NCBI GenBank assembly: GCA_045634455.1
Contig: JAZRAI010000005.1
Span: forward strand, 1,292-65,291
Reading direction: 5' to 3'
Source of the DNA: Acutalibacteraceae bacterium
GTDB lineage: Bacteria > Bacillota > Clostridia > Oscillospirales > Acutalibacteraceae
Length of the DNA stretch: 64,000 bases
Below, one piece after another: positions 1 to 9,406 of the stretch. The notes under the pieces are model-generated. The model had not been told where the DNA came from, made no database searches, and saw only the letters and a list, made by a program, of their open reading frames with translations. Position numbers and translations under genes: made by a program. The number at the start of each line of letters is the position of its first letter. The first letter of the stretch is position 1.

Positions 1-35
1 TTTACCTTGTCAAATTGCTTAATGGCCTCTTATTT

Positions 36-65
36 GCGATTACACGCAATTAGAAGCAATTACAA
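36..65. repeat. three tandem 10-bp units (gcgattacac / gcaattagaa / gcaattacaa)
   Basis: Read directly in non-coding DNA at the window edge. Confidence 0.6.
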
Positions 66-92
66 GCTGAAAGGTGGTCGTTTTAATATCGG

Positions 93-150
93 TTTTGGTC
101 TTTTTATATACATTTTGATACCATTTTTGGTCTTTGTGAACATTTTTTGA
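93..150. repeat. two ~26-nt direct repeats (ttttggtcttt..acatttt(tt)ga), 32-nt period
   Basis: Read directly; copies at 93-118 and 125-150. Confidence 0.5.
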
Positions 151-162
151 ATTTTACCGAAG

Positions 163-198
163 GAAAACCGCACCATAGTTTTTACACAATGGTGCGGC
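163..198 (-). terminator. intrinsic terminator of the surface-protein operon
   Basis: Stem ccgcaccat (168-176) / atggtgcgg (189-197). On the minus strand it is followed by TTTTCC, just 3' of the 229..1569 stop. Confidence 0.7.
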
Positions 199-228
199 TT
201 GAGAGGTAACTCAAAACAGAGTTATGAG

Positions 229-1569
229 TTATTTGAATATTTCAAAATTACCTTCTTTAGAATGTTTGTCATTGGCTTTATTCTTTTTAGCAACAATAAT
301 TATAATAACTCCACCTATAATTACCGCACCAATAATAACCCAAATAATCCAGCTGCTATCGTTATTTTCAGATGAATCAGTTGCATTATCTACATTAACG
401 GTATCATCAGGTTCAACATTGGTTTCAACATCATTCTTCTCAATCATAGGAATTTCTTCCTCAATGACTGTGTTGCAGATAGTACAAGTTTTTGTTTGCT
501 TTCCAACATCGGTTTCAGTGGCGGGAGTAACTACAACAGCTTCGCCGAAGGTATGCTCTTTTTTAGGTAAAGTATTTGTGGTTTCTTTATCACAACGGGT
601 GCATTTACCACTTTCAACACCTTCTTCAGAGCAAGTGGGCTCTTTAGTTACTGTTGGGTTAGAGAACTTATGTCCAAGAGCTTTAATATCTTTAGTTTCT
701 TTGTGAGAACATTTTGAACAAGTTCTTGTTTGACTACCTTTTTCCTCGCATGTTGCTTCTTTTGCAGTAGTCCAGTTGCCCATAGAATGACCTTTAGCAG
801 CAACGTCCTTTGTTTCTACTTTTTGACAAATAGAACAAGTGCGTGATTCTGTACCCTTTGCAGTGCAGGTAGGTTCTTTGGTCTGAGTCCAATTACCAAA
901 TGTATGATTTGTTGTTGTAGCAATTGTTTCGGTTTTTGTTGCATTACAAACAGTGCAAGTATAGGTCTTAACGCCTGTTTCTTTGCATGTTGCAGTCTTT
1001 GTTATAGTACCACCATTCCATGTATGTGCTGAGGATTCTGCGGTGCCGCAGGCAGTGCAAGTATGCTTATGATTGTTATTATCCGCTTTATCCCATGCAC
1101 CAAAACTGTGAGTTTTACAAATAACTTTTACAGTAGTGGTGTTTGCAGTGGAAGCTATAACGGTGCTACCATTTTTTATAACAGCTTCAGTTTTAATTGT
1201 TGTGTCTTTTAAAGAGGCGTTATTTTTAACTTTCAAAACGTATTTAAAAACATCTCCACTTTTATTAACCGCACTAGAATAACCGATTGCAGCATTTTTA
1301 TTATCAAAACTAGCAATCATCGCACCGGTTAAAATCCATTCGCCCGATACAACCTCAAAAACATTCTCATCGTATACAGGGGTTAGTGCCATGGATTTGA
1401 ATTCTGCATTACTATTTAAAGAAACCGTAACTGTAATTGTATCGCCAAGCTTTACAGTGTTTGCAGATGTTTTAGAGTTAACCTTTACAGCTTCTGCCGC
1501 AAAAACAGAAACAGAAAGTGAGAATATTAACACTAAACAAATCAAAAAACTAATAATCTTTTTCATCAA
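229..1569 (-). CDS. membrane-anchored surface protein: signal peptide, cohesin-like module, 6 CxxC repeat units, C-terminal TM anchor
   Basis: Signal peptide MMKKIISFLICLVLIFSLSVSVFA. Cohesin-like VKLGDTITVTVSL..YDENVFEVVSGEW. Repeat units such as EPTCTAKGTESRTCSICQKVETKDVAAKGH. C-terminal WIIWVIIGAVIIGGVIIIIVAKK. AAGGAGA RBS, 9-nt gap to the upstream gene. Confidence 0.8.
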   Translation of the reverse strand: MMKKIISFLICLVLIFSLSVSVFAAEAVKVNSKTSANTVKLGDTITVTVSLNSNAEFKSMALTPVYDENVFEVVSGEWILTGAMIASFDNKNAAIGYSSAVNKSGDVFKYVLKVKNNASLKDTTIKTEAVIKNGSTVIASTANTTTVKVICKTHSFGAWDKADNNNHKHTCTACGTAESSAHTWNGGTITKTATCKETGVKTYTCTVCNATKTETIATTTNHTFGNWTQTKEPTCTAKGTESRTCSICQKVETKDVAAKGHSMGNWTTAKEATCEEKGSQTRTCSKCSHKETKDIKALGHKFSNPTVTKEPTCSEEGVESGKCTRCDKETTNTLPKKEHTFGEAVVVTPATETDVGKQTKTCTICNTVIEEEIPMIEKNDVETNVEPDDTVNVDNATDSSENNDSSWIIWVIIGAVIIGGVIIIIVAKKNKANDKHSKEGNFEIFK

Positions 1570-1578
1570 TCTATCTCC

Positions 1579-3327
1579 TTATTTGTGTAATGGATATTTT
1601 TCAAGAAGCAAGGTGTGATAAAGCAAATAAATTGCATCATCACTATCTAAATCACCATCACCGTTAAAGTCACATTTTTGATTAACGGCATACTCTTCCG
1701 GTAGGAGTGTATGAAATAGAAGATAGATTGCATCGTCACTGTCAATTGTTTCATTTCCGTCAGCATCACCTAAAATATAAGTAAGCGCAGGAGTGATGTC
1801 GTATTTTTCCTCATGGTTACATACACTACATGTATGTGTTGTGTAACCGTCTTTTTTATATTCAGGCTCTACAATTGTCGGTGTTCCGTATTGGTGGCCA
1901 AGAGCAGATATCTCTACATATGTTGTATAATCACATATCCTACAAGTCTCATATGCATTCCAGCCAATCTCGGTGCAAGTAGCGTCTTTTGCATCGTGAT
2001 GAATTAAATTATGACCAGGTGCTTTAATCGTCTTATTTTCTCTTGAAAGTTCTTCATTACATGCTGAACAGTACACTACACTATCGTAAGAACCATCGGT
2101 GATACATGTTGCTTCTACGCGATTTTCTTCTTTAGTAATCGTGGGATTATGACCAAGCGGATGTATTTCTTTATAGGTTGTGTAATCACAACGTGAGCAT
2201 GTATCATAAGCATCCCAACCAACCTGGGTGCAGGTAGGGGGCTGTGCATCATGTGTAATTATATCGTGTCCGAGCTTATTAAGTGTAATTGTTTCACGAG
2301 AAAGTTCTTCGTCACATACCGAACAATACACAACACTGTCATAGGATCCGTCTTCGGTACAGGTAGGATTAACACGGTTCTCTTCAACCGCATTTGTAGC
2401 ATCGTGACCGGTGGCATCAATTGTAATTGCTTCGCGTGAGAGTTCATCATTACATACTAAGCAATATACTACGCTGTCGTAGGTGCCGTTTTCGGTACAA
2501 GTCGGAGCAATACGATTTTCTTCAACTGCATTGCCGGCAGTATGGCCTGTAGCATCGATTGTAATTACTTCACGTGAGAGTTCAACGTCGCATACTGAGC
2601 AATATACCACGCTATCGTATGAACCGTTCTCAGTGCAGGTAGATTCAATTCGATTTTCCACTACAGGTTCATCGGATGTGTGACCAAGGGAGGAGAGTGT
2701 GTTACCTTTAATATTTTCATTGCAAATATCACAGTGATAGGTTGTGTAACCTTCTTCGGTACAAGTGGGGTCTGTTACAACTCCAGCATTAGTATCAACT
2801 GCATGTGCTGCAAAAGATGCACGGCCGCCCACAAAGGGAACAACATTGAGACCGTTTATGCAGTTTTTATCCTGTCCATCAAAAACTTCTGCATAAATAG
2901 CGATATCTCCGCAAAAATCCTCTTTTACCTTGAAGTTCAAAGTAAGCATTTCGCCAGTTGCTGTAGAAACATTGTTCATCATTAATGTGTAGCAAATACT
3001 ATCGCTATAAACATAAACGCCTTCTATGTCGTTAGAAAACAGATTTGCACTAGTATAGTCAACAAACTCAAGCGCATCCGGGTCAAATTTAACAGAAAAT
3101 TTAAGAATAGTAATGCCGGTATTTTGGTCTGCACTAATCTTTACAGAAACTTCGTCACCGCTTTTATAAATAGCTGGTGAGAAAGAAACAGGAGTGGTGG
3201 TCTCTGCCACCACTCCCACCTCAAAAGTTTCGATAGTTTCAACAGTTTCAGCATTAACAGTAACCATTGAAGTTGAGAAGATTAGAGCGGCAGCCAAAAG
3301 CATCGATAAGATTCTTTTAAGTTGCAT
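1579..3327 (-). CDS. secreted protein: cohesin-like module, 8 CxxC repeat units, C-terminal dockerin-like module
   Basis: Signal peptide MQLKRILSMLLAAALIFSTSMVTVNA. Cohesin-like KFSVKFDPDALEFVDY. Repeat units such as ESTCTENGSYDSVVYCSVCDVELSREVITIDATGH. Duplicated Ca-loop motif GDADGNETIDSDDAIYLL / DFNGDGDLDSDDAIYLL. GGAGG RBS. Confidence 0.8.
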   Translation of the reverse strand: MQLKRILSMLLAAALIFSTSMVTVNAETVETIETFEVGVVAETTTPVSFSPAIYKSGDEVSVKISADQNTGITILKFSVKFDPDALEFVDYTSANLFSNDIEGVYVYSDSICYTLMMNNVSTATGEMLTLNFKVKEDFCGDIAIYAEVFDGQDKNCINGLNVVPFVGGRASFAAHAVDTNAGVVTDPTCTEEGYTTYHCDICNENIKGNTLSSLGHTSDEPVVENRIESTCTENGSYDSVVYCSVCDVELSREVITIDATGHTAGNAVEENRIAPTCTENGTYDSVVYCLVCNDELSREAITIDATGHDATNAVEENRVNPTCTEDGSYDSVVYCSVCDEELSRETITLNKLGHDIITHDAQPPTCTQVGWDAYDTCSRCDYTTYKEIHPLGHNPTITKEENRVEATCITDGSYDSVVYCSACNEELSRENKTIKAPGHNLIHHDAKDATCTEIGWNAYETCRICDYTTYVEISALGHQYGTPTIVEPEYKKDGYTTHTCSVCNHEEKYDITPALTYILGDADGNETIDSDDAIYLLFHTLLPEEYAVNQKCDFNGDGDLDSDDAIYLLYHTLLLEKYPLHK

Positions 3328-3343
3328 CTCTTATACCTCCAAA

Positions 3344-6300
3344 TCACATATCTAAATAGTCATCGTTGCCAACAACTGCATTGTGAAGAAGTGCAAAGTC
3401 ATAAGCAGTTACATATCCATCCTTATCAAGGTCAAATACGGTTTCGTAAACGCCTTCTGCTGCGTCTGCAGAATTATACCATTTAGCAAAATTCATGGTA
3501 TCAGCAGAATCAATAACACCGTTACCATCAGCATCACCAAGTGTTACAACGTTAATACCTGCTTCTGTGCCAAAATCAACTATTAATTCATTGATATAAG
3601 CATCATCGTCGTTACGAGCAGCAACACCGGGAACTACAGTGAAGTCTGCAACGCCAGTAAAGTCTTGATCAACCTTGAAAGTGAGAGTTGCAAAAAGATA
3701 TTCGCCTTTTTCGAATTTTTTATCAACATAGTTGTATCCCATGTTTTGTGCGAGTGCAACAACATATGAGCTGTTTGCTGCATCAATATATGTGTTAGCA
3801 GTTACATCAAATACCTTACCTTCAACATTTACCAAAGTAAGATTCTGATTGAAGCCGATAGCAAAGTTAAGACCATAAAGTCTTGCAATATCACTGTTAA
3901 CATTCATATAAACATTAAGTGTAATATAACCGGAATTTACAGCCACATCACTACCATTGATACCAATTGCTTCATAAGTAAAGGTTATCTCTTCATTTAA
4001 TGCAGCAATTTCATTCTGTGCAACGAGTACTTCATCACAAACGGAGCAATGCTTACCTTCGGTAAGACCTGTAGTGTCGTAAGTAGGAGCAACAGCTTCG
4101 TCGATAACTTCGGTGTGGCCAAGTGCAGCCAACTCATTATAAGTAGTATGATCACATCTGGAGCAATCTTCATAAGCATCCCAACCAATTTCGGTACAGG
4201 TAGGAGCCTTAGCATCATGCTGTGTTAAATCGTGACCAAGAGCAGCTAATTCGTTGTAGGTGGTATAGTCACATCTTGAGCAGTCTTCATAAGCGTCCCA
4301 ACCAATTTCAGTACATGTGGGAGCCTGTGCGTCATGCTGTGTTAAATCATGACCGAGTGCTGCCAACTCGTTATAATTTTCGATGTGATCACATCTAGAA
4401 CAATCTGTATATGCGTCCCAACCAATCTCGGTGCATGTAGGTGCTTTGGCTTCTACATCAAGCATATCGTGGTCAAGAGCGGCTAATTCGTTGTAAGTAG
4501 TATAATCACATCTTGAGCAATCCTCGTATGCGTCCCAACCGATTTCGGTACAGGTAGGAGCCTTAGCGTCATGCTGTGTTAAATCGTGACCGAGTGCATC
4601 AACAAAGTTATCTTTGAAGACTTCATCACAAATGAGGCACTTCTTAACAGTGTAGCCTTCTTCGGTACATTTTGACTCTACAATACCTAATGTCAAGCAG
4701 TCGTAGTGACCTAATGCATCAACAACGGTATCAACATAAACATCACCGCAAGTTGAGCAGGTGTGAGTTGTGTAACCTTCTTCGGTACAAGTAGGATCGG
4801 TTACTACTGCATCATAAGAATGACCGAGAGCAGCTAACTCATTGTAAGTGGTATAGTCACATCTTGAGCAGGTAACATAAGCATCCCAACCGATTTCAGT
4901 ACAAGTTGCAGCTTTAGCTTCGTGAGCAACTTCATCATGACCTAAAGCATCTACAAAAGCATCCTCATATGTATCATTACAACGCGAACAAGTGTGAGTA
5001 GTGAATCCATCATTTAAACAAGTAGCTTCAGTAACTACATCTATATAATTATGATTATCAGGATCAATCGGAGTTGTCTTTTGTGCTGCTAAAACAATGT
5101 GGCAATCGCCGCATTCGATTTGGAAGGTAAGACCTGTTTCGGTACAGGTTGCCTTAACTTCGTCTTTAGTAATTACGCCTCTATGAGAAAGAGGATTAGG
5201 ATCAACATAGCTGTCAACGTATGAATCGTCGCAACGTGAACAATCGTGGGTAGTGTAACCTTGTGCAGAACAAGTAGGAGCTGTTACAGTAGGAACGTAG
5301 TCGTGTCCAAGAGCATCTACTACCTGCTGAGCCTCAATAATAGTATCACATACAGAGCAATGCTTACCTTCTGTAAGACCGGTTTCGGTACAAGTGGGAG
5401 CAACAGCGCTATCAGTTGTCTCGGTGTGACCAAGAGGATCAACTACAACATTTTCACGGCTGAGTTCTGCATCACATACATCACAGTAAATAACGGAATC
5501 ATAAGAACCAGGGTTTACGCAATCAGCGGCAACAATGTTTTCCTTAACAGCCTCTCCGTGAATGTGTTGAAGAGGTTCTCCAACAGCCTCATCGAAAGTG
5601 AAGGAACATACCTTACAAGTATATCTTACAGTTTCGGCGTCTTCACAAGTAGCGCCGATTACCTGCTTGTCATAATCGTGATGTCCAACACACGCAATCG
5701 TTTCTCTCTTGGTTTCGTGACATACAGTACACTCGTAATCGATGTAGCCGTCTACAACACAAGTAGCATCCTGTCTGCCAGTCTCTTGGTAGTCGTGGCC
5801 TGTAGCAGTAATTGTGTGTGAAGCACGAACAAATTCCTCTCCACATACAGCGCAGTAGATAACGGTGTCATATGAGCCATTGTTTTCACAATCTGCCTCA
5901 ACACGGTTTTCTTCAACCTCGCTGCTTGCGGTATGACCTAATGCATCTACATATGTATCTACATAAGTGTCAGCACAATCGGGGCAAGTATGAGTGGTGT
6001 AACCCTGTTCAGTACAAGTAGGATCGGTTACTACTGCATCGTGGGAATGTCCTGTAGCAGGAATTTCCACATATTCGTTTAAATCACATGTGTTACAGGT
6101 TCTGTAAGCATCCCAACCAATTTCAGTACAGGTAGGAGCCTTAGCATCATGATTTACATAATCATGTGCGCCTGTAGGCACAGCGGTAAGTTCAGCATAT
6201 GTTCCGTGGCATTCGTCACATTCATATACTTTGTATCCAAAGTTTGCGCATGTAGGAGCAACTTCGCCTGTTACAGTTCCTGTACGTGTTGCAGGATCAC

Positions 6301-6406
6301 ATTCACATTTCGTTGCTTCTAATGCAGATGCAGGTATTATAAGCTGTGTTAAGAGCATTGATAATACTAAAAGCATCGCAAAAATTTTAGAAAAATGTCT
6401 CTTCAT
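3344..6406 (-). CDS. large secreted protein: 19 CxxC repeat units, cohesin-like module, C-terminal dockerin-like module
   Basis: Signal peptide MKRHFSKIFAMLLVLSMLLTQLIIPASA. Repeat units such as PTCTEIGWDAYEDCSRCDYTTYNELAALGH. Cohesin-like TLTFKVDQDFTGVADFTVVPG region. Dockerin-like LGDADGNGVIDSADT..FDLDKDGYVTAYDF. AAGGAGAAAA RBS. Confidence 0.85.
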   Translation of the reverse strand: MKRHFSKIFAMLLVLSMLLTQLIIPASALEATKCECDPATRTGTVTGEVAPTCANFGYKVYECDECHGTYAELTAVPTGAHDYVNHDAKAPTCTEIGWDAYRTCNTCDLNEYVEIPATGHSHDAVVTDPTCTEQGYTTHTCPDCADTYVDTYVDALGHTASSEVEENRVEADCENNGSYDTVIYCAVCGEEFVRASHTITATGHDYQETGRQDATCVVDGYIDYECTVCHETKRETIACVGHHDYDKQVIGATCEDAETVRYTCKVCSFTFDEAVGEPLQHIHGEAVKENIVAADCVNPGSYDSVIYCDVCDAELSRENVVVDPLGHTETTDSAVAPTCTETGLTEGKHCSVCDTIIEAQQVVDALGHDYVPTVTAPTCSAQGYTTHDCSRCDDSYVDSYVDPNPLSHRGVITKDEVKATCTETGLTFQIECGDCHIVLAAQKTTPIDPDNHNYIDVVTEATCLNDGFTTHTCSRCNDTYEDAFVDALGHDEVAHEAKAATCTEIGWDAYVTCSRCDYTTYNELAALGHSYDAVVTDPTCTEEGYTTHTCSTCGDVYVDTVVDALGHYDCLTLGIVESKCTEEGYTVKKCLICDEVFKDNFVDALGHDLTQHDAKAPTCTEIGWDAYEDCSRCDYTTYNELAALDHDMLDVEAKAPTCTEIGWDAYTDCSRCDHIENYNELAALGHDLTQHDAQAPTCTEIGWDAYEDCSRCDYTTYNELAALGHDLTQHDAKAPTCTEIGWDAYEDCSRCDHTTYNELAALGHTEVIDEAVAPTYDTTGLTEGKHCSVCDEVLVAQNEIAALNEEITFTYEAIGINGSDVAVNSGYITLNVYMNVNSDIARLYGLNFAIGFNQNLTLVNVEGKVFDVTANTYIDAANSSYVVALAQNMGYNYVDKKFEKGEYLFATLTFKVDQDFTGVADFTVVPGVAARNDDDAYINELIVDFGTEAGINVVTLGDADGNGVIDSADTMNFAKWYNSADAAEGVYETVFDLDKDGYVTAYDFALLHNAVVGNDDYLDM
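4115..4591 (-). repeat. four in-frame near-identical tandem repeats (117, 117, 120, 117 bp) inside the 1020-aa gene
   Basis: Unit boundaries taken at the Gly/Asp-His codons: gtggcc 4115, gtgacc 4232, atgacc 4349, gtggtc 4469, gtgacc 4586. Encoded unit is HDLTQHDAKAPTCTEIGWDAYEDCSRCDYTTYNELAALG. Confidence 0.9.
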
Positions 6407-6549
6407 AATTTTTTCTCCTTATTAGTTTTTGTTTTTACATTTGATACAAGTTCGAGGATGTCCGCGTGGTAACACAATAAAAAAGCACAAAATTCAACAA
6501 CTCCTGATTTCCCGTTAATATAGGGCTATTTTTTGCGACAAAATGACAA

Positions 6550-6575
6550 TTATCAAATGGTGTACCTTTTGATAA
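6550..6575. promoter_or_regulatory. hix-like recombination site 1: TTATCAAATGGT-GT-ACCTTTTGATAA
   Basis: 12-bp imperfect inverted half-sites (1 mismatch) around the 2-bp core GT. Outer bases TTATCAAA / TTTGATAA match Hin-family half-sites. Confidence 0.6.
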
Positions 6576-6659
6576 TGGCCGTTTTTAACAGGTAAGGAAT
6601 TGCTTTTCAGTTATCATTAAATAAATATCTTCAAAAATTCGATTTTTTCTTAAAAGTAC

Positions 6660-6688
6660 TTGCATTTTCTTTTCATTTATGATAAAAT
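6660..6688 (+). promoter_or_regulatory. sigma-A-type promoter TTGCAT-N17-TAAAAT inside the putative invertible segment
   Basis: -35 at 6660-6665, 17-nt spacer, -10 at 6683-6688. It points toward the invertase 3' end in this assembly. Confidence 0.5.
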
Positions 6689-6698
6689 ACCATAGAAT

Positions 6699-6736
6699 AA
6701 AATGACTCTCAAAAGGTACACCTTTTGAGAGTCATT

Positions 6737-6738
<2 letters not shown>
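6699..6738 (-). terminator. hairpin terminator of the invertase gene (overlaps hix-like site 2)
   Basis: 18-bp perfect stem aaaatgactctcaaaagg / ccttttgagagtcatttt with loop taca. T-runs on both sides. It abuts the stop codon at 6737-6739. Confidence 0.7.
6706..6731. promoter_or_regulatory. hix-like recombination site 2: CTCTCAAAAGGT-AC-ACCTTTTGAGAG
   Basis: Perfect 12-bp inverted half-sites around the 2-bp core AC, the reverse complement of the site 1 core. 21/24 identity between site 1 and the reverse complement of site 2. Confidence 0.6.
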
Positions 6739-7444
<706 letters not shown>

Positions 7445-7558
7445 TTAAACAAAGCAAATCGTCATATATTGTGGAAAAAAAGAAAATATTGTGATATAAT
7501 GTAAAAAATAAGAATTCGAATGCTGTATTAAAAAACTTGTGTAAAAGGAATGTTAAAC

Positions 7559-9406
7559 ATGCTTAATTATCCTATAAATGTTACTATTGATACAAATGTA
7601 TTGTACGCTACAAACTATGATTTCAGCGAAAACAGCCCTCTTTCGCTTCTTGTAAAATATGTTCAAAAAGGAAAAATCAAGGTGATCTTAAGTGATATTG
7701 TTATAAGGGAAGCAAAGGCACATATATCAAAGCAAGTGAGTGATGTATGCGGAACTGCACGCAGGTTAAGAAAAGAAGTTTTGGAAAAATCCACAAAATC
7801 GCTTGTAGATTATATTGGAATGGGTAAATTATTAGAATTAGTTAATGACAAGAACAACCTTGTATTAAAGGGTTGTGAAATGTTTGATAATTTTATAATT
7901 CAAACGGGAGCGGAAATTTTAAAAACTGATCTAATAGATTTAGATAATATAATAGATGATTATTTTGAAATAAACCCTCCTTTTCAAAATGGCGAAAAAA
8001 AGAGAAAAGAATTTCCAGACGCATTTATAGCTTGCCAAATTAGAAAACGCTTTGGTGAAACTGAAGATGTCATTATCATAAGTAATGATAATGGCTTTAA
8101 GGCAGCGTGTGGAAATAATTCAAATCATATCTTTTTGAGTTCATTGGGCCAACTCTACAATACGATAAATAAGGAAGAGAAGGCATATGATGATACGATA
8201 AATTTAATTAAGGAATTACAATTCCGTATTCGAACAGAAATATTTGAATTCATAAAAACAAATGAAAGTATTGACGTAAGAGGTCTTTCTTATGATAAGG
8301 ATGGTATCGTAAGCGGATATGACTATGACGAATTTTATTTACAAGACATCTCAAACGGCACATTTGTAGTTCATTCTGTAGATGAAATATCTGAAAAAAC
8401 ATCTATAATAACTCTTTCGTGCAAGGCCAAAATGTCTGTTGATTGTTACTATGAAGATTATGAAAATGCTCCTTGGGATTCTGAAGCCAAAGAGTATGTT
8501 TTTGTCGAAAGTATAAAAATGAGAGAGGAACACGATGCAAGATTTGCTTGCCAAATTCAACTTAATCGCGAAACAAAAGATTTTAAAATTTCACCCTTTA
8601 AAGTGATTTTAGGTGGAGATTCCCGCAAAGAAGTTTATGAAATCAAAGATGAAGAAACTGAGAATTGTGAACGTGATATTTGCAATATGGATAGAGAAAC
8701 GTTAGGTTTTAATGCTCTTGGTAGTTATGAGTCATATTTACAAGAAGCATTGCCAGAATCTGATTTCAGCAAGAGAATTATCGAACAATTCGAAATAATC
8801 AATAGCTTTCGTAATCAATACGAAGAGATGAGTATAGATTATTACGAATTGTTTGAAAAAATCAATAAAGATGATAATCCTAAAGAAATATGTGGTGCAC
8901 TTTATAAAAAATTAAAAGAGTGTAATGGTTTTCCAACAATTATTAATGAAGAACATATTAGCGATGATGAATTAACAAAAATAAAAAAGTGGTTTGAAAC
9001 TGCCGGTGAAACGACTTGTGAAATCTCTGAAGAAGGACATTTGCCAGACTATATAAGTTACGGCGACACAATTCTCATAAAAGGTATTGATGATGAATTG
9101 ACGTTATCAATTCAAGATATTAGCAATATAGATCCGAGTGCTGGCGAACAGGAGAGCATAGATGTTTTATTATCTAAAGCTCAAGAAACAATAGCTACAG
9201 GGTCTATTACGTTGACAGTAGGTTATTTAGATTTTGATGAAGACGGAGGTGCAGCGAACGGTATTGAAGATAATATAGAATACGAATGCCATGAAATAAT
9301 CGAAAAAATTGATGGTTTCATCTTAAAACAAAAAGAAAAGGTAGAAGAGTACTTGAAAGTAAGTGAAATTTTAAAAGAATTCTTAGATACAGACATTATG
9401 AACTAA
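7559..9406 (+). CDS. PIN-like nuclease-domain protein with a ~400-aa acidic C-terminal region of unknown function
   Basis: N-terminus INVTIDTNVLYA, IVIREAK, FPDAFIACQI and IIISNDNGF fit the acidic-residue pattern of the PIN-like (DUF4935/PIN_12-type) fold. Start may be 7550 or 7559; the AAAGGAA spacing favours 7559. Confidence 0.6.
   Translation: MLNYPINVTIDTNVLYATNYDFSENSPLSLLVKYVQKGKIKVILSDIVIREAKAHISKQVSDVCGTARRLRKEVLEKSTKSLVDYIGMGKLLELVNDKNNLVLKGCEMFDNFIIQTGAEILKTDLIDLDNIIDDYFEINPPFQNGEKKRKEFPDAFIACQIRKRFGETEDVIIISNDNGFKAACGNNSNHIFLSSLGQLYNTINKEEKAYDDTINLIKELQFRIRTEIFEFIKTNESIDVRGLSYDKDGIVSGYDYDEFYLQDISNGTFVVHSVDEISEKTSIITLSCKAKMSVDCYYEDYENAPWDSEAKEYVFVESIKMREEHDARFACQIQLNRETKDFKISPFKVILGGDSRKEVYEIKDEETENCERDICNMDRETLGFNALGSYESYLQEALPESDFSKRIIEQFEIINSFRNQYEEMSIDYYELFEKINKDDNPKEICGALYKKLKECNGFPTIINEEHISDDELTKIKKWFETAGETTCEISEEGHLPDYISYGDTILIKGIDDELTLSIQDISNIDPSAGEQESIDVLLSKAQETIATGSITLTVGYLDFDEDGGAANGIEDNIEYECHEIIEKIDGFILKQKEKVEEYLKVSEILKEFLDTDIMN

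Follow-up and report, generated by a model that had tools for sequence, protein, structure and literature searches.

A probable promoter-inversion switch with its own Sin-related serine recombinase beside a cohesin/dockerin operon of an Acutalibacteraceae bacterium

What is known of phase variation in gut bacteria comes mainly from Bacteroides (tyrosine recombinases, Mpi) and from Clostridioides difficile (RecV). Here we describe a locus of an Acutalibacteraceae bacterium, contained in 64,000 nucleotides (nt) of contig JAZRAI010000005.1 (assembly GCA_045634455.1, positions 1,292 to 65,291 of the forward strand); this whole stretch is called the window below, and positions are counted from its first letter. 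At 6550-6731, two 26-base-pair (bp) crossover sites in inverted orientation flank a short promoter-bearing segment, with the gene of a small serine recombinase on one side and an operon for cohesin/dockerin proteins on the other (Table 1). This arrangement is very probably a promoter-inversion (phase-variation) switch, assembled in its OFF orientation, because the arrangement is conserved in a family of homologous loci, the cores of the two sites covary, the promoter occurs in mirror-image positions, and an exact inversion is found in a system that is 87% identical. As in invertons generally, there are inverted repeats, a segment bearing a promoter, an adjoining recombinase gene and a gene that can be regulated.

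With Hin/hix of Salmonella and the Din family (Gin, Cin, Pin), the locus shares a small serine recombinase and inverted 26-bp sites built as 12+2+12, and with Hin/hix also a promoter within the invertible segment that switches a neighbouring surface-protein gene. The outer half-site sequence, TTTTGATAA, is identical to that of hix (PMC3241671). The hix half-site is GGTTTTTGATAA, and hixL reads TTCTTGAAAACC-AA-GGTTTTTGATAA (PMC3241671, Table 3); the right arm of site 1 equals this half-site in the outer 9 of 12 nt, and differs in the three nt next to the core, which are ACC instead of GGT (the two triplets are swapped). A preliminary description of the locus, made from the letters alone, had given the hix half-site correctly, and the likeness that it noted holds for the outer nine nt but not for the three beside the core. 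Unlike in Hin and the Din family, the recombinase gene lies outside the segment, which in the family of the window is 5-30 times shorter (117-223 bp vs about 1-4 kb); the cores vary, whereas Din sites have AA or GA cores; and by its catalytic domain the enzyme stands nearer to Sin and gamma-delta than to Gin. Fis, a protein of proteobacteria, is not known from Firmicutes, so that control by Fis and an enhancer is unlikely here.

Mpi of Bacteroides fragilis is likewise a serine recombinase encoded outside small (about 200 bp), promoter-bearing invertible segments that serve the surface structures of a gut commensal. It acts in trans on many scattered promoters, whereas each switch described here has its own recombinase immediately upstream, and the repeats of the Mpi polysaccharide promoter invertons differ in sequence from those of the window family. 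The recombinase reaches 44.7 bits with the NCBIfam model for Mpi (NF009949), below its cut-off of 272, and identity with the Mpi family was rejected on this ground. Among solved structures, the best match is Sin (Tn552/pI9789; PDB 2r0q), which, like beta recombinase, has Firmicute hosts. Sin and beta recombinase need a bending protein of the HU type, and beta recombinase can invert as well as resolve. Their res or six sites, which lie upstream of the gene and pair a crossover site with an accessory site, serve in the resolution of directly repeated copies; in the window, by contrast, a promoter downstream of the gene stands between two sites that are both crossover-type and have inverted cores.

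Surface structures are likewise governed by short invertible segments, with a promoter or a leader, in fimS (FimB/FimE) of Escherichia coli, in the RecV switches of Clostridioides difficile and in Clostridia inverton group 139, which PMC11892184 ties to tyrosine recombinases; some of these occur in the same bacterial class as the window. They differ from the present locus in belonging to another enzyme superfamily with another chemistry, in having no logic of 2-bp cores, and in their inverted repeats, which are unrelated in sequence.

Both sites had been put forward in the preliminary description, and direct reading finds them where it had placed them, with the 12+2+12 build and with GT and AC as cores. 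In a repeat search of the window they form an inverted repeat of 20 nt that is 95% complementary. The pattern TCAAAWGGTRYACCWTTTGA, with up to three mismatches allowed, has exactly two matches in the 64 kb, at sites 1 and 2; 0.05 matches are expected from shuffled controls, and none of 100 shuffles reached two. Neither a further crossover site nor a second copy of the recombinase was found in the 64-kb window. The agreement between the two sites had been counted as 21/24 in reverse complement and 19/24 in direct alignment; the correct values, over all 26 nt, are 21/26 and 19/26. Without the cores, the arms match at 19 of 24 positions in either alignment, so the difference between the two counts arises solely from the fit of the cores.

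Relatives of the recombinase number at least 8000 in metagenomes (E <= 1e-10), and at least 589 were confirmed in one-genome-per-species data, of which the best 80 were analysed; the hosts are Oscillospiraceae, Acutalibacteraceae, Lachnospiraceae, Ruminococcus and others, and isolates with such modules include Faecalicatena faecalis AGMB00832, Guopingia tenuis NSJ-63 and Coprococcus sp. OM04-5BH. About 55 of these 80 loci have two such palindromic sites, one right behind the stop codon of the recombinase and the other 117-223 bp beyond the first, with the consensus nnnTCAAAAGGT-NN-ACCTTTTGAnnn. Core dinucleotides were reverse complements of each other in 42 of 44 first-pass pairs; the two exceptions had been mis-paired and were resolved on re-pairing. 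In properly paired loci (about 45, non-redundant) the cores are always reverse complements, in seven combinations (GT/AC, AC/GT, GC/GC, AT/AT, TT/AA, AA/TT and CT/AG). Compensatory change at the positions where serine recombinases cut is to be expected if inversion between inverted sites is under selection; this covariation and the family-wide conservation support the earlier assignment of the two sites as crossover-type sites in inverted orientation. Three contigs (L116-L118), with a recombinase 88% identical and the same type of 1020-amino-acid (aa) cargo protein, have the cores AC/GT where the window has GT/AC; this swap is a recent compensatory double change.

Site-anchored alignment of the inner segments leaves one strongly conserved element, a sigma-70-type promoter (TTGmaA-N17-(TG)nTAtAAT) whose -10 box ends 28-30 nt from one of the cores and which has A-runs about 10-11 nt apart upstream of its -35 box. 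All-against-all alignment of the segments, forward against reverse complement, gave a signal from the promoter alone; inner segments diverge too fast between species, and a position-specific promoter test was therefore used. The promoter TTGCAT-N17-TAAAAT, which the preliminary description had located within the 154-bp segment of the window, proved to be this family element: it has an extended -10 TG at 6680-6681, 29 nt separate the end of its -10 box from the proximal core, and as assembled it faces the 3' end of the recombinase gene (OFF). About 36 other loci have this promoter at the 28-30 nt offset.

The distance from core to core, 156 bp in the window, falls into classes across the family (117, 127, 136/137, 146-148, 156-160, 166, 176/177, 188-190 and 200 bp) that are about 10.4 bp apart, and periodicity is strongest at 10.25-10.5 bp (R 0.73 for L001-L090, with a p-value that is indicative only). 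These spacing classes and the phased A-runs suggest that synapsis across a loop the size of a nucleosome requires both sites on one face of the helix. In 39 of 45 loci, a co-directional open reading frame (ORF) of 100 aa or more begins no further than 450 nt beyond the distal core; the gap has a median of about 55 nt and is often too short to hold another promoter. The cargo genes are mutually unrelated and mostly encode surface or envelope proteins, among them BspA-type leucine-rich repeat (LRR), VWA, dockerin, collagen-like and TSP3 repeat proteins, and enzymes such as GtrII, LicD and group 1 glycosyltransferases and an MBOAT acyltransferase; this is the customary repertoire of phase-variable surface and envelope functions.

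As for orientation, the promoter adjoins the proximal site and faces the recombinase in about 30 non-redundant loci, the window included; in six others (L013, L014, L017, L028, L039 and L087) it adjoins the distal site at equal offset and faces the downstream gene. These mirror-image positions support the earlier prediction that inversion would aim the promoter of the window at the co-directional operon. Where a locus has the majority orientation, the palindrome at its proximal site is as a rule extended, with a mean of 13 nt per arm vs 8.9 if the inner arms are swapped; in L013, L017, L028 and L087 it is the swap that would lengthen the palindromes (in L013, for example, from 11 to 20 nt), and these four loci look like products of recombination.

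Contigs with one identical recombinase (P0031, 87% identical to that of the window) come in two forms, the promoter facing the recombinase in L111 and the cargo gene in L112 and L113. Once its segment is reverse-complemented from the TT to the AA core, L111 is identical to L112 (0 mismatches over a length of 2,615 nt, vs 81 differing positions as found), and the point of exchange can be narrowed to a stretch of 14 nt with the core inside it (-4 to +9 around the core). Ten more contigs of the P0031/P0034 locus (L090-L099) all have the promoter facing the recombinase, which brings the cargo-facing form to 2 of 13 assemblies. The phase switch proposed in the preliminary description is thus upheld by comparative evidence, including this exact inversion between independent assemblies of a homologue.

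Several points weigh against a working promoter switch in the window itself. No flipped copy of the window locus or of its nearest relatives was found among 11 contigs (L081-L086, L115 and L116-L118), all of which are OFF; contigs of the window lineage retrieved by exact protein (P0001, P0002, P0003, P0004 and P0010) all have the orientation of the window. When metagenomes were scanned for the proximal junction that inversion in the window would create, the only match was the family member L087-L089, itself flipped. Both orientations, which the preliminary description had proposed to look for in reads or metagenomes, are seen in the 87%-identical homologue and across species but not in the 11 contigs of the window lineage. 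The loci of the family are, moreover, phylogenetically related, so that the counts given above and the Rayleigh statistic for spacing overstate independence. A fixed leader of 143 nt, with a weak promoter-like match, may allow some constitutive expression, and that the adjacent recombinase is the enzyme responsible is something we infer. Judged from sequence comparison, the window copy would nevertheless still flip, and its operon would depend on the switch promoter.

The uniform orientation would also fit a switch that is real in the family while the window copy is locked or decaying in OFF, with no meaningful rate of flipping, and related loci do decay, seven of the P0058 contigs (L102-L109 range) having lost the segment and L119 being without a distal site. 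We regard a locked copy as unlikely: the recombinase ORF and its catalytic motifs are intact, both sites are near consensus with complementary cores, and assemblies show the majority orientation only, the flipping P0031/P0034 locus itself being OFF in 11 of its 13 contigs.

How the promoter-inversion switch would silence its operon is suggested by the perfect palindrome centred on site 2 (Table 1), which overlaps the recombinase stop codon and is flanked by T-runs on both sides. From its modelled folding it would act as an intrinsic terminator in both directions, ending the recombinase mRNA on one side and, in the assembled orientation, transcripts from the switch promoter on the other. As assembled, this promoter faces an RNA hairpin of -30.3 kcal/mol (z -9.9) followed by UUUUAUUUAUUU, and the recombinase mRNA ends at the same palindrome in a hairpin of -29 kcal/mol (z -7.5). 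Terminator scan and hairpin energy agree with the earlier view that the locus was assembled OFF, its promoter aimed at the 3' end of the invertase gene and at the hairpin of site 2. An antisense RNA to the invertase, which had been considered as well, is not supported: a hairpin of -30 kcal/mol with a U-run stands between promoter and gene, and such transcription is unlikely in the OFF state because this strong terminator intervenes. In the predicted flipped state, the hairpin towards the operon, at the hybrid distal site, has -13 kcal/mol and no long U-run, and the one at the 3' end of the recombinase has -10.8 kcal/mol.

We propose the following course of events. Recombinase dimers would bind the two 26-bp palindromic sites and cut at the central dinucleotides GT and AC, which are mutual reverse complements; the sites would synapse, strands would be exchanged at the cores, and the segment 6564-6717 would invert. 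In the OFF state, the promoter would fire on the + strand into the extended palindrome at the proximal site, and since this site doubles as a terminator, OFF should be tightly silent. In the ON state, the promoter would lie 29 nt from the distal core, aimed through the fixed leader at the cohesin/dockerin operon (6406->229), and the transcript would enter that operon with a leader of about 180 nt. Inversion would swap half-sites and so dismantle the extended palindrome, with a weaker hybrid-site hairpin remaining towards the operon; because the inner arms are exchanged, the terminator would exist in the OFF state only. The short loop would probably be enabled by helical phasing of the sites, by curvature of A-tracts in the middle of the segment and by a bending protein of the HU type. 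The A/T-tract region upstream of the -35 box may act as an intrinsic bend or as an UP-like element.

Between the distal site and the operon, the preliminary description had seen only weak fixed promoter candidates on the minus strand, and the consensus scan concurs, with a single 9/12 match in the leader (6556->6528) whose -35 box is borrowed from the site arm. The arm ACCTTTTGAnA holds a -35-like hexamer (TTGACA, TTGATA or TTGAGA) in both directions at most loci (6551-6556 in the window), which produces weak promoter-like matches at every site. An Rfam search of 6200-7600 returned only sub-threshold matches caused by the hairpin, and no riboswitch or leader family for the fixed leader. With this leader and its match, the segment might invert without turning the operon simply ON and OFF, the operon having a promoter of its own in 6407-6549 or being reached by read-through from the recombinase, so that inversion would only modulate expression; in a further form of this explanation, inversion would mainly control termination of the recombinase transcript or antisense transcription. 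Read-through would indeed vary with orientation, given the change of the 3' hairpin of the recombinase from -29 to -10.8 kcal/mol on flipping. We consider modulation improbable, to the same degree as a locked copy: in many homologues the gap from core to start codon is 30-60 nt and has no room for another promoter, the switch promoter is the sole strongly conserved element of the segment, and the strong terminator blocks antisense transcription in the OFF state.

The recombinase itself has 202 aa (201-204 aa in homologues) and matches PF00239 over residues 11-155 (E 2.3e-26). Its catalytic motifs YVRVSS and DRLGR are intact and align to Sin and gamma-delta resolvase, and its C-terminus aligns to the DNA-binding domain of gamma-delta; the Pfam helix-turn-helix (HTH) model has no match in it, and a PDB search with the C-terminal 54 aa alone, a very short query, found no Hin domain and no meaningful match. 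Against solved structures the whole protein scores 103 bits with Sin (2r0q; E 1.2e-28), 79 bits with gamma-delta (E 3e-21) and 57 bits with Gin (E 2e-14). Grouping with the Din family was rejected on these values, and the label of a Hin-type invertase, used in the preliminary description, does not hold, Sin and gamma-delta being nearer by sequence than Gin.

The same similarity to Sin and gamma-delta resolvases, and the DNA upstream of the recombinase, which varies between strains, would be in keeping with a mobile-element resolvase, the two palindromes then being a res-like resolution site or operators and not an inversion switch. Such an origin is very improbable here: both sites are crossover-type (12+2+12), lie downstream of the gene and are 117-223 bp apart in the family; their cores covary as reverse complements, which resolution does not need; the promoter is found in mirror-image positions; and an exact inversion was seen in a homologue. 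The res site was rejected as a candidate because both sites are crossover-type and downstream of the gene and the product in the homologue is an inversion. Least credible of all is that site 2 is merely the terminator of the recombinase and site 1 a chance or degenerate copy, since, textbook terminator hairpin though site 2 is, the pattern has 2 matches against 0.05 expected, the pair is kept across dozens of species with compensatory core changes, and a homologue has undergone exact inversion.

Table 1 Features of the promoter-inversion locus and its surroundings in the window.
Feature	Position	Strand	Description	Basis
Site 1, recombinase-distal crossover site	6550-6575		12+2+12, TTATCAAATGGT-GT-ACCTTTTGATAA	Direct reading, repeat and family comparison
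Core of site 1	6562-6563		GT (AC on the recombinase strand)	
Site 2, recombinase-proximal crossover site	6706-6731		12+2+12, CTCTCAAAAGGT-AC-ACCTTTTGAGAG	
Core of site 2	6718-6719		AC (GT on the recombinase strand)	
Invertible segment	6564-6717		154 bp between the cores; 156 bp core to core	
Switch promoter	6660-6688	+	-35 TTGCAT (6660-6665), 17-nt spacer, -10 TAAAAT (6683-6688)	
A/T-tract region upstream of the -35 box	6626-6659	+	cttcaaaaattcgattttttcttaaaagtac	Information-content peaks, anchored alignment
Palindrome centred on site 2	6696-6741		22+2+22, perfect	Repeat search and terminator scan
Small serine recombinase gene	6737-7345	-	202 aa from ATG at 7345; ORF extendable to TTG at 7366	
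Candidate recombinase promoter	7406-7434	-	TTGAAA-N17-TATATT	Consensus scan, 10/12
Fixed leader, distal site to operon start codon	6407-6549	-	143 nt; GGAG ribosome-binding site at about 6416-6419	
Cargo gene 1	3344-6406	-	1020-aa secreted protein, Cys-rich repeats, C-terminal dockerin	
Cargo gene 2	1579-3327	-	582-aa secreted protein, N-terminal cohesin, Cys-rich repeats, dockerin-like C-terminus	
Cargo gene 3	229-1569	-	446-aa protein, signal peptide, cohesin domain, Cys-rich repeats, C-terminal membrane anchor	

The three cargo genes of the window lie on the recombinase strand directly downstream of the switch, and from their predicted domains the products would form a small cohesin/dockerin assembly anchored by the third protein. 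Their Cys-rich repeats, of about 30 aa (e.g. CTEIGWDAY..CSRCDYTTYNELAALGH, in 229-6406), match no Pfam family; a similar repeat occurs in the cargo of the family member L061 (5853-6464). On the other flank of the recombinase (7367-9406) stands a divergently transcribed gene for a PIN_12 protein of 618 aa. The same-species contig L081 is homologous to the window only as far as 7440, a point about 95 nt upstream of where the recombinase gene starts, and the candidate recombinase promoter falls within the shared block. Past this point, the strain of L081 carries an HTH gene and AAA_15/OLD-TOPRIM-like genes (1-4000) instead of the PIN_12 protein, and by its gene content the flank looks like a variable region of the defence-island type.

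Several loci of the family depart from the two-site layout. Three sites are present in L018 (5681, 9031 and 9177), all with the palindromic core AT and with identical outer flanks at the first and third (ACCTTTTGATAAttgcagtagt), which suggests that one promoter cassette could serve two genes or that larger segments could invert. Among the P0058 loci (L100-L109, about 20-220 nt past the stop codon of the recombinase), three contigs have the full switch; from seven the entire invertible segment is cleanly deleted, so that a single hybrid site stands directly before the cargo gene, and the junction lies within TATCAAAA, common to the arms, and not demonstrably at the core. In L119, a relative with 92% identity, proximal site and promoter are retained; about 130 nt after the stop codon the contig runs into unrelated sequence, and no distal site occurs in the next 210 nt or so past the divergence. 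It may be a rearranged locus or a chimeric contig. Contigs L082, L085, L114, L002 and L010 end inside or just past a site. Contig ends of this kind (L082, L085 and L114) were rejected as a weak sign of mixed orientations, because a perfect palindrome that exceeds k in length breaks a de Bruijn assembly in any case.

Full-text searches on the site sequence and on serine-recombinase invertons of Clostridia brought up no description of the family, individual instances of which may figure in inverton catalogues, and the site motif does not occur in the consulted part of the PMC11892184 supplements. The logic of the switch is familiar; the lineage of the enzyme, the architecture of the cassette and the geometry of the small loop appear undescribed. 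Tentatively, and with a little less than even confidence, we suggest that these loci represent a large undescribed family of Sin-related 'mini-loop' invertases of gut Clostridia and their neighbours, marked by cassettes of their own (117-223 bp), Fis-free phased synapsis (about 10.4 bp), phased A-tracts, a terminator in the OFF state only and switches insulated by their cores. Each recombinase gene would then carry a portable promoter cassette immediately downstream, and differing core dinucleotides would stop the switches within one genome from recombining with each other.

The locus points to a separate family of serine-recombinase switches across Oscillospiraceae, Lachnospiraceae and related groups. 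Genes under such stochastic on/off control include those for adhesin-like LRR proteins, cohesin/dockerin assemblies and envelope-modifying enzymes. This also matters for the reading of metagenome assemblies, because contigs break at the sites and orientation stays hidden. With its very short loop and helical phasing, the switch is a compact case from nature of inversion by a serine recombinase, presumably without Fis, and the many site and core variants of the family are candidate orthogonal genetic switches. For the organisms themselves, the finding bears on how abundant gut Clostridia vary their surface against phages and host immunity.

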